Below are positions 48,801 to 51,800 of a stretch of 64,000 bases of DNA, one piece after another. The stretch is from positions 4,526,001-4,590,000 of the forward strand of contig NC_092353.1 of NCBI RefSeq assembly GCF_963676685.1, written 5' to 3'. The position numbers and the translations under genes were made by a program. Position 1 is the first letter of the stretch; the number at the start of each line of letters is the position of its first letter. Source of the DNA: Mytilus edulis (Eukaryota). The notes under the pieces are model-generated. The model searched no databases. It was not told the DNA's origin and saw only the letters and a list, made by a program, of their open reading frames with translations.

Positions 48801-51800
48801 GGTAATCAGGTACTTGTTTGAAAGTATACTTACAACATTTCCGACACATGTGTGGACAAATCTTTGACGCTACACAATCATCTGAACACAGATTTGGTAG
48901 ATAAAAGGCTAGACGTGTACATATATCATCATCTTTGTTCATACACACAGAAGGGTCTGCAGTTGTTGCTAATAAAAAGTACAAGCAAAGAAACATCTGG
49001 AGTTGTTTTAAAAAAAGAACATTGAGAAAGCAACCCGAAAAAGAGCAGAATATCAAGATAATTACAACGCAGTCTTCGACTCTTTTATGAATGTTCTATA
49101 GCAGAAAAGATATATTTTGCAAAGTTTTCATTGATATATATTTCAGATAATAAAAGTATTCATAGAAGGTACATTGTTTTGGGGCACCGTTACAGGCCGT
49201 TTGGTGTAAAACAGGAAGTATTACAAAATCAACTGAAAATGATCAAACATAATTTTAAAACAATTGCAAAGTGTCAATCAAAATTAAAGTTATGAAAATT
49301 CACAGCAATTTTACGATCAGAAAATAAGGTAGATTAATTTTTTGCACAACATTTGAAAAACCGATAATAATATGACTTAAATATTTGTGCAGTTATAATT
49401 TTAATTATCTACATTTTACAGTATGAAAACATGACAGTTTTCTATGTTTTAAATGCAAATGTGAATTAATTAATGCACATTGTTAATGACTCACTGATAG
49501 AGGAATAATTCTGTGGCGGAGTTATATGAAGTAACGGCGGTGGTTTGTTATTACATTTGTCAGTATTACAACACCCGGCTTCAATACTGGATCTGAACTT
49601 TGAGGATATTGGGGAATACTGGAGACAAGTCTGAAAGAAATTAAGAAAATCTTGAATATGGTCCCCGTATATACACTTGTTTCAGTTTCAGGGTATTCAG
49701 AAACTTTAAGCCTCGATAAAATGTGACACCCACCTGTCTACCGCCATTCCAGAGACTTCAAGCCTCGATAAAATGTGACACCCACCTGTCTATCGCTATT
49801 CCAGAGACTTCAAGCCTCGATAAAATGTGACACCCACCTGTCTATCGCTATTCCAGAGACTTAAAGCCTCGATAAAATGTGACACTCACCTGTCTACCGC
49901 CATTCCAGAGACTTAAAGCCTCGATAAAATGTGACACCCACCGGTCTACCACCTTTCAGAGACCTAAAGCCTCGATAAAATGTGACACCCACCTGTCTAT
50001 CGCTATTCCAGAGACTTCAAGCCTCGATAAAATGTGACACCCACCTGTCTATCGCTATTCCAGAGACTTCAAGCCTCGATAAAATGTGACACCCACCTGT
50101 CTACCGCCATTCCAGAGACTTCAAGCCTCGATAAAATGTGACACCCACCTGTCTATCGCTATTCCAGAGACCTAAAGCCTCGATAAAATGTGACACCCAC
50201 CTGTCTACCGCTATTCCAGAGACTTCAAGCCTCGATAAAATGTGACACCCACCTGTCTACCGCTATTCCAGAGACTTCAAGCCTCGATAAAATGTGACAC
50301 CCACCTGTCTATCGCTATTCCAGAGACTTCAAGCCTCGATAAAATGTGACACCCACCTGTCTACCGCTATTCCAGAGACTTCAAGCCTCGATAAAATGTG
50401 ACACCCACCTGTCTACCGCTATTCCAGAGACTTCAAGCCTCGATAAAATGTGACATCCACCTGTCTACCGCTATTCCAGAGACTTCAAGCCTCGATAAAA
50501 TGTGACACCTACCTGTCTATCGCTATTCCAGAGACTTCAAGCCTCGATAAAATGTGACACCCACCTGTCTATCGCTATTCCAGAGACTTCAAGCCTCGAT
50601 AAAATGTGACACCCACCTGTCTATCGCTATTCCAGAGACTTCAAGCCTCGATAAAATGTGACACCCACCTGTCTACCGCCATTCAAGAGACTTCAAGCCT
50701 CGATAAAATGTGACACCCACCTGTCTATCGCTATTCCAGAGACTTCAAGCCTCGATAAAATGTGACACCCACCTGTCTATCGCTATTCCAGAGACTTCAA
50801 GCCTCGATAAAATGTGACACCCACCTGTCTATCGCTTTTCCAGAGACTTCAAGCCTAGGTAAAATGTGACACTCACCTGTCTACCGCCATTCCAGAGACT
50901 TCAAGCCTAGTATAGGTAAAATGTGACACGCACTTGTCAAGTACTGTCACATCTAAGACTGCAAGCATCAGTAACATGTCACACTCAACTGTCTGCTGCC
51001 ACATCAGGTATTGCAAGCCTAAGTAAGAAAATACATCCACCTGTAGACTGCCACACCAGATAATGCAAGCATCTTTCGGTAAAATATGACTCCTGTATAC
51101 TGCAATACTAGAGATTGCAAGTATCGCTAAAAAGTGACACATACATTGTACATGCAAATGTCTTCTACTATACGAAAGACTGAAAAACCAAGTGTCAATG
51201 TGACATTCTCCTGTAGCTGTCTAATAATACTTCACATACTACAATTCTTGGTGTAATGCGACATGCACCTTTAGCTGTCTAATAAGACTTCACATACTAC
51301 AATTCATGGTACAATGTGACATTCACCTGTAGCTGTCTAGTGATACTTCACCTGCTACACTTCATGGTACAATGAGACATTTACCTGTCTCTTGCGTCGG
51401 TTAAAACCACTCTAAACTGTCTACTTTGACATTACAGTGTTCAATGAAGGAAAACATGATACACCTACCTGTCTACTACCGCATCCAAGTCTGTAAGCCT
51501 CAGTAAAATGTGCCGTAAATGTCTGTGCAGTGAAGCAATACTGTTAAAAAAAGTAACAAAAGTTGAACCAAAGAGATTGTCTTTATAGCATATCGTTATT
51601 TTTGTTCCTTTTTTGTTGATTTAGAAAATGGCGAATTTTTGTTGCTTTATGTATATAATCTAAGGAGCGAGAACGATTGCGTTGACAGGTTTAACGTCTC
51701 CTGATATAGATGCATCTCCCGTCATGCAAACTGAGACGCAAACAACATGTAACAAACGCAAATAGGACACTATCGGTAACTACACATTTAATGACTATAC

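Follow-up and report, generated by a model that had tools for sequence, protein, structure and literature searches.

The fourth intron of gene 3 in the Mytilus edulis DNA analysed here (64,000 nucleotides of contig NC_092353.1, the whole of which we call the window) is occupied by a locus-specific minisatellite made of copies of the exon 4/intron 4 junction. We suggest, with a probability of roughly 0.85, that a chance tandem duplication over the splice donor was followed by functionless expansion and decay through slippage or unequal exchange, with splicing kept at the first donor and rare stop-containing products decayed. A first-pass annotation of the same DNA had attributed the array to a slippage hotspot at this donor or to selection for splice modulation, and neither is supported. 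In all likelihood we are dealing with an ordinary drifting repeat, and others of its kind are already known in the genes of humans and lancelets.

Results

Three genes stand in tandem on the minus strand of the window, and the domain order of each is ShK-like, Ly6/uPAR, ShK-like, Ly6/uPAR, C-type lectin. The Ly6/uPAR and lectin domains were confirmed by Pfam, and the ShK label is based on a database name and the cysteine pattern. Gene 3 matches XP_071137478.1 of Mytilus edulis exon by exon; its exon numbers presuppose a short first coding exon. The family comprises at least 23 genes with conserved exon phases (genome contigs C6, C10, C11, and C13), and intron 4 is ancestral, being present throughout. 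In our literature search, nothing published on the family turned up. Among the protein clusters, that of gene 2 is linked to a family of unrelated glycosyltransferases, probably via a fused gene model of 1478 residues. A dispersed repeat whose unit measures about 490 bp is present at window positions 45751-47674 and 53779-55497, in copies of opposite orientation that flank gene 3 exons 2-6. A 4.1-kb direct duplication (54541-58625 versus 59912-64000, 99.6% identical) is either a recent tandem duplication or an assembly overlap. The features of gene 3, in window coordinates and with a slash at the splice point, are as follows.

51469..51540, minus strand: gene 3 exon 4, 72 nt, phase 0-0, in the middle of the first Ly6/uPAR domain, with RNA joints on both sides
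51468-49631, minus strand: gene 3 intron 4, 1838 nt, GT..AG
51461..51512, minus strand: source of the repeat, in which the last 44 nt of exon 4 are followed by the first 8 intron nt; it contains the authentic donor CAG/GTAGGT (G of GT at 51468)
51421..51423, minus strand: TAG in the exon 4 reading frame, upstream of every repeated donor
50869..51460, minus strand: 11 decayed units of 32-65 nt, most 27-33/52 identical to the source, GT lost in 5
51196..51388, minus strand: 58-bp sub-array (TRF), 3.3 copies inside the decayed part, with a short insertion that shifts the donor-like site
50871..50879, minus strand: pseudo-donor CAG/GTGAGT in the last transitional unit (50876), scoring above the authentic donor
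50507..50515, minus strand: pseudo-donor CAG/GTAGGT, the same 9-mer as the authentic donor
49884..49892, minus strand: second pseudo-donor CAG/GTGAGT, in a homogenised unit (49889), scoring above the authentic donor
49690..50868, minus strand: homogenised array, 22 units of 51-52 nt and one partial unit, 95% alike
49631..49689, minus strand: unique 3′ end of intron 4, with the pyrimidine tract and acceptor
49495..49630, minus strand: gene 3 exon 5, with an RNA joint to exon 4

The first-pass annotation had aligned a 52-bp unit without gaps to the end of exon 4 plus 8 intron nt, and this match is real; the identity of 38/52 given there is the best case, reached by two units. The 21 full 52-nt homogenised units are 35-38/52 identical to the junction without gaps (consensus 36/52), while the scores of 1000 dinucleotide-shuffled sequences, tried in all rotations on both strands, averaged 23.8 and reached 29 at most, so the exon similarity is significant. 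The first copy begins exactly 52 nt past the source, and the units then follow head to tail in register. Some 34 units (11 decayed, 22 homogenised, and 1 partial) cover 96.8% of the intron, which bears out the description of an intron almost filled by degenerate units next to the exon and about 23 homogenised units distal to them. TRF reported the 52-bp array at 49694-50908, with 23.4 copies at 95%. The identity to the core unit drops from 49 to 40 to about 30/52 toward exon 4, and the units carry patterned variants.

The unit was then compared with the 1.37 Gb genome, in searches that give lower bounds. Of the matches obtained, all 7 at the DNA level and 23 of the 24 to the pattern were at the unit's own locus. 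The single pattern match elsewhere has 2 mismatches and equals the control, since a reversed pattern likewise gave 1 match. A dispersed satellite or transposon-derived repeat was therefore rejected, as there are no copies at unrelated loci beyond this control-level match, and the genome-wide satellite that the annotation had named as one of two threats to its reading did not appear in these lower-bound searches.

Do the repeated donors look as if they were maintained? The annotation stated that the units keep CAG/GTGGGT. This is so in 18 of the 22 homogenised units, the other four having CAG/GTAGGT (50512), CAG/GTGGAT, CAG/GTGAGT (49889), and CCG/GTGGGT; it is not so in 5 of the 11 decayed units, where GT is gone, including the copy adjoining exon 4 (CAG/TT). 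The two strong CAG/GTGAGT sites that it reported are present, at 50876 and 49889. With two shifted sites counted, GT is found at or beside the donor position in 22/22 homogenised and 6/11 decayed units, so that about 28 GT sites are left, two of them stronger than the authentic donor and one identical to it. On a scoring matrix built from 186 donors of the family, the authentic donor ranks at the 74th percentile. The two GTGAGT sites rank higher, at the 84th, and the 18 GTGGGT sites lower, at the 41st. The invariance of GT in the young units says nothing on selection, because most columns are invariant there. In the decayed units the donor G is kept in 5/11 and the T in 10/11, while the five preceding bases (GACAG) are kept in 9-11/11 (column mean 57%); therefore GT is not favoured, and the higher conservation of GT over its neighbours that selection would predict was not seen. 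The good retention of GACAG is accounted for only in part by alignment anchoring and shared descent.

Translation continued past the end of gene 3 exon 4 runs into a TAG at 51423. The first repeated donor lies beyond it, at 51384. Since this stop precedes all of the repeated donors, no pseudo-donor gives a longer full protein. In gene 2, reading through from exon 4 meets a TGA at 29685.

Splicing was followed in assembled contigs (depth 9-15) of four out of 24 runs; three of the four are only guessed to be RNA. The joint 51469-49630, which connects exon 4 to exon 5 from the first donor, was seen in three of the four runs, from two studies; the fourth (X19) does not cover this junction. Neither joints nor loose ends at a pseudo-donor were found in the contigs of the four runs. 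The array itself contains eight short contigs, a picture to be expected of unspliced RNA or DNA, and none of them joins exon 5. Thus, splicing of gene 3 in the RNA contigs examined uses the first donor only, and the cryptic or recursive splicing for which the annotation suggested looking did not show, although low-level use of pseudo-donors is compatible with this result because contigs drop rare isoforms. The gene 3 protein cluster has 8 members from five Mytilus species, and in every one of them exon 4 is likewise spliced to exon 5 from the first donor; these proteins are gene models and not independent evidence of splicing.

The homologous exon 4 regions of the other two genes are as follows.

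29412..29734, minus strand: gene 2 array at the homologous donor, 7 copies of 46 bp (36 exon and 10 intron nt), 98% alike
13776..13847, minus strand: gene 1 exon 4, not followed by any exon-derived copies

As the annotation had noted, the gene 2 array differs from that of gene 3 in unit length and boundaries (46 bp, 36+10, versus 52 bp, 44+8). Its units hardly differ from the exon of gene 2 itself, and no older copies were found in the rest of the gene 2 intron beyond this young array. A core unit of gene 3 agrees with the gene 3 exon at 36/52 positions, compared with 28 for the exon of gene 1 and 25 for that of gene 2. In a tree of 52 columns, which has low power, all units group with the gene 3 exon and not with that of gene 1 or gene 2. 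Because each array matches its own exon and no old units were found in the gene 2 intron, these comparisons support separate births, of which that in gene 3 is old and that in gene 2 young.

For gene 1, the statement that no array adjoins exon 4 is right as to exon-derived copies, but an unrelated array does lie farther along the same intron. It occupies 6402-8433, with 61.7 copies of a 33-bp unit that contains GTAAGT on the gene strand, and was found at this locus only. We rejected it as a third set of exon 4 donor copies, since its alignment is no better than shuffles (477/1000 as good). Counting the arrays of genes 2 and 3, intron 4 thus bears an array in every one of the three window genes. 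Intron 2 of gene 1 contains a 285-bp tandem repeat (15439-16191, 2.6 copies, 99% alike) with a stretch that looks tRNA-like by eye, and a decayed array of 72-74-bp units lies just upstream of gene 2 exon 2 (36544-37014), with a weak match to that exon (z = 3.1).

We surveyed 203 exons of 23 family genes, aligning each exon end to as much as 2 kb of flanking intron and comparing the result with shuffles. The 203 exons were kept from 216 HMM hits (the other 13 are copies inside arrays); first exons were left out, and some genes are incomplete. A copy in the flanking intron was found for 7/394 exon ends, in 6 genes (z ≥ 8.5, the next value being 5.0). These seven events fall on five junction types: the exon 4 donor (2/14), the exon 5 acceptor (2/20), and one each of the exon 6 acceptor, exon 7 acceptor, and exon 9 donor. 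Both exon 4 donors with copies are in the window, and the 11 outside it have none, so the excess of independent events at the homologous donor that a junction-specific hotspot would give across paralogs was not seen. If the exon 4 donor is named in advance, two matches have P = 0.022, a value to be read with the fact that the window was picked for holding two such arrays. Two of seven events coincide at some shared junction type in 66% of permutations (P = 0.66), and this is what would be expected without a slippage hotspot at the donor.

Outside the window, the paralog at locus L021 (G000:C11:76895800-76896500 and 76898300-76898800) has two mirages, namely about ten copies of the exon 7 acceptor (51 bp) and a decayed exon 9 donor array. 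Exon 5 is duplicated on its acceptor side at L013:5212-5438 (113 bp) and L011:6941-7085 (70 bp), with two copies each, and the exon 6 acceptor is present in several copies at L032 near 2534.

Myosin served as the control, with copies at 11/417 exon ends in 26 unrelated genes, a frequency not different from that of the family (Fisher P = 0.48). The myosin rows were curated by eye: 5 of the 16 rows with z ≥ 8 were dropped, and 4 sides were taken off 421. The dropped rows comprised a non-exon dispersed repeat, a fragment that was one of the copies, the duplicate of a whole exon (maybe an alternative exon pair), and two arrays with few exon bases. Earlier, 49 of 272 myosin peptides had been removed because they derive from repeats and 9 because they are duplicate fragments. 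Among the 11 rows retained, one donor is counted three times, once for each of three close paralogs, and probably stands for a single event, which leaves about nine independent events; one is itself a 52-bp donor array. Myosin donor arrays lie at L050:350-1460, L051:1329-1572, and L049:1204-1622 (gene strand) and at L058 near 8900, three of them at one homologous donor. Locus L064 (muscle-type myosin) has two near-identical whole exons at about 830-960 and 1484-1646 (gene strand), perhaps mutually exclusive ones of the type known from mollusc myosin.

The combined background is 18/811 exon ends, or about 2-3%, in two unrelated mussel families. Random intronic 50-mers of the ShK/Ly6/C-type-lectin family had a nearby copy in 63 or 95 of 1500 cases, depending on the weighting (4.2-6.3%); against this rough control, exon ends are not enriched for nearby copies. 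With a background of 2-3%, recurrence at one junction needs no special cause.

Discussion

We propose the following course of events for gene 3. Slippage or unequal exchange would have produced a 52-nt duplication that straddled the donor and left the exon intact. Such a duplication would be harmless, since the real donor still closes the first copy and all further copies come to lie in the intron. Expansion and decay may then have been repeated, one distal variant having probably swept recently to about 22 copies by unequal crossing-over, while units at the edge would escape homogenisation. By analogy with human F7, the spliceosome presumably picks the most upstream donor, and rare use of a later one would run into the in-frame stop and likely end in nonsense-mediated decay, so that the array would be tolerated. 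A direct repeat at the unit ends was sought in genes 2 and 3 as the cause of slippage, and no matching ends were found. Fold energies for a hairpin at the junction, the other cause considered, had no shuffle control and were set aside.

It is unlikely that intron 4 of this family is itself a duplication hotspot, mutational and without function, with arrays recurring at both of its ends. When the events are grouped by intron, four of seven do fall in intron 4 (P = 0.02 in a post hoc permutation allowing any intron), at 4/34 exon ends versus 3/360 for the others (nominal P = 0.0014). Tandem arrays are found in 6/14 fourth introns versus 16/155 others (nominal P = 0.004), the exon 5 acceptor duplications are in two genes outside the window, and all three window genes have their array in this intron. 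However, without the window the exon ends give 2/28 versus 3/303, a weak excess (P = 0.06), and the tandem-array excess has P = 0.10. Furthermore, the 11 exon 4 donors outside the window are without copies, the sole new event in the second batch of loci was an exon 6 acceptor, and the arrays of genes 2 and 3 differ in unit length and share no short repeat at their unit ends. That the two arrays are remnants of one ancestral array, or an artefact of assembly, is hardly credible. Genes 2 and 3 are neighbours with exon 4 peptides that are 75% identical, and arrays of such lengths are hard to assemble; but each array matches its own exon, and no old units were found in the gene 2 intron. Each of 12 public runs, coded as three organisms, contains at least half of the sampled words of 49400-52200, contigs of the RNA runs match the units without differences, and the units carry patterned variants.

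A selected role in splicing is also very improbable. In such a role, the pseudo-donors would divert pre-mRNA to stop-containing products, and the copy number would tune the amount of protein. The many remaining GT sites, two of them stronger than the real donor, would permit this, all of them would give stop-containing RNA, and human IFI6 and CBS use their nearest pseudo-sites, as stated in PMC1557585. However, no pseudo-donor joint was present in the RNA contigs, the commonest pseudo-donor is a middling site, and the copy nearest to the exon has lost its GT, as have nearly half of the decayed units. According to the same source, F7 splicing did not change when units were added or deleted, and a like loss in the second repeat of CBS is, by its title, the subject of a paper cited there. 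Still less can be said for the units as recursive (ratchet) splice sites or cassette mini-exons, each holding an AG/GT. The CAG/GT of the units and the well-kept ACAG of the decayed ones fit such a use, but in the unit examined the 18-nt stretches preceding its AGs contain only 8-10 pyrimidines each, so an acceptor tract is lacking. Recursive splicing concerns long introns, and this one is only 1.8 kb. With no joint into the array in the RNA contigs either, cassette or recursive use of the units was rejected. As improbable as the selected splicing role is a combined reading, in which intron 4 is a recurrent two-ended hotspot and the ladder of about 28 donors behind a stop in gene 3 forms a length-variable dial to decay that tunes the dose of a probable immune lectin between individuals.

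Taken for itself, the gene 3 array is an ordinary example. An intron in which one identical and two stronger copies follow the real donor lets first-donor selection be tested in a natural gene outside mammals, and exon-boundary arrays can mislead gene prediction. The rate of exon-end copies (18/811) is a more useful by-product than the gene 3 example itself. Our search for literature on such exon-boundary repeats in Mytilus or bivalves found nothing relevant.

The gene 3 array has boundary-spanning head-to-tail units, a repeated splice signal, splicing at the authentic site in the contigs, and a concerted core, and by these features it belongs with the minisatellites of the F7 type and the amphioxus mirages. 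Intron 7 of human F7 holds a 37-bp VNTR of which only the most upstream donor is used (Borensztajn et al. 2006, PMC1557585); cases in IFI6 (6-16), CBS, LMNB2, and PDGF are cited beside it. As in gene 3, the first F7 unit spans the exon-intron boundary, the donor is repeated along the intron, and the most upstream site is used. Added or stronger pseudo-sites left F7 splicing unchanged in the experiments of that paper, and even GTGAGT pseudo-sites do not compete, which agrees with the gene 3 contigs. Unlike the F7 unit, which has 4 exon nt, that of gene 3 holds 44, has diverged by about 30% from its source, includes an old decayed part, and fills 97% of its intron. Length polymorphism and the scanning mechanism are features of F7, whereas the gene 3 array is known from one assembly.

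In recent human paralogs, De Grassi and Ciccarelli (2009, PMC2812944) described internal tandem repeats located at the boundaries of exons and introns, and these resemble the gene 3 array in being minisatellites at exon boundaries in duplicated gene families. Those repeats create new introns or alternative transcripts, whereas the gene 3 intron is ancestral and the RNA contigs contain no alternative form. Mirage minisatellites of amphioxus are reported for the globins BflGb6 and BflGb9 and for Adh3 (Ebner et al. 2010, PMC3087553; Canestro et al. 2002 via citing papers) and for PGBD5 (PMC3902484). As described there, they share with gene 3 the tandem copies of an exon boundary, the homogenised core, the diverged edge units, and normal splicing (PMC3087553), and with the mussel arrays in general the many loci per genome, on the donor or acceptor side. 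The mussel is a mollusc and not a lancelet, and somatic instability and haplotype differences are, in those accounts, amphioxus features. Given that about 2-3% of the surveyed mussel exon ends have a copy of their own nearby, mirages are not special to lancelets.
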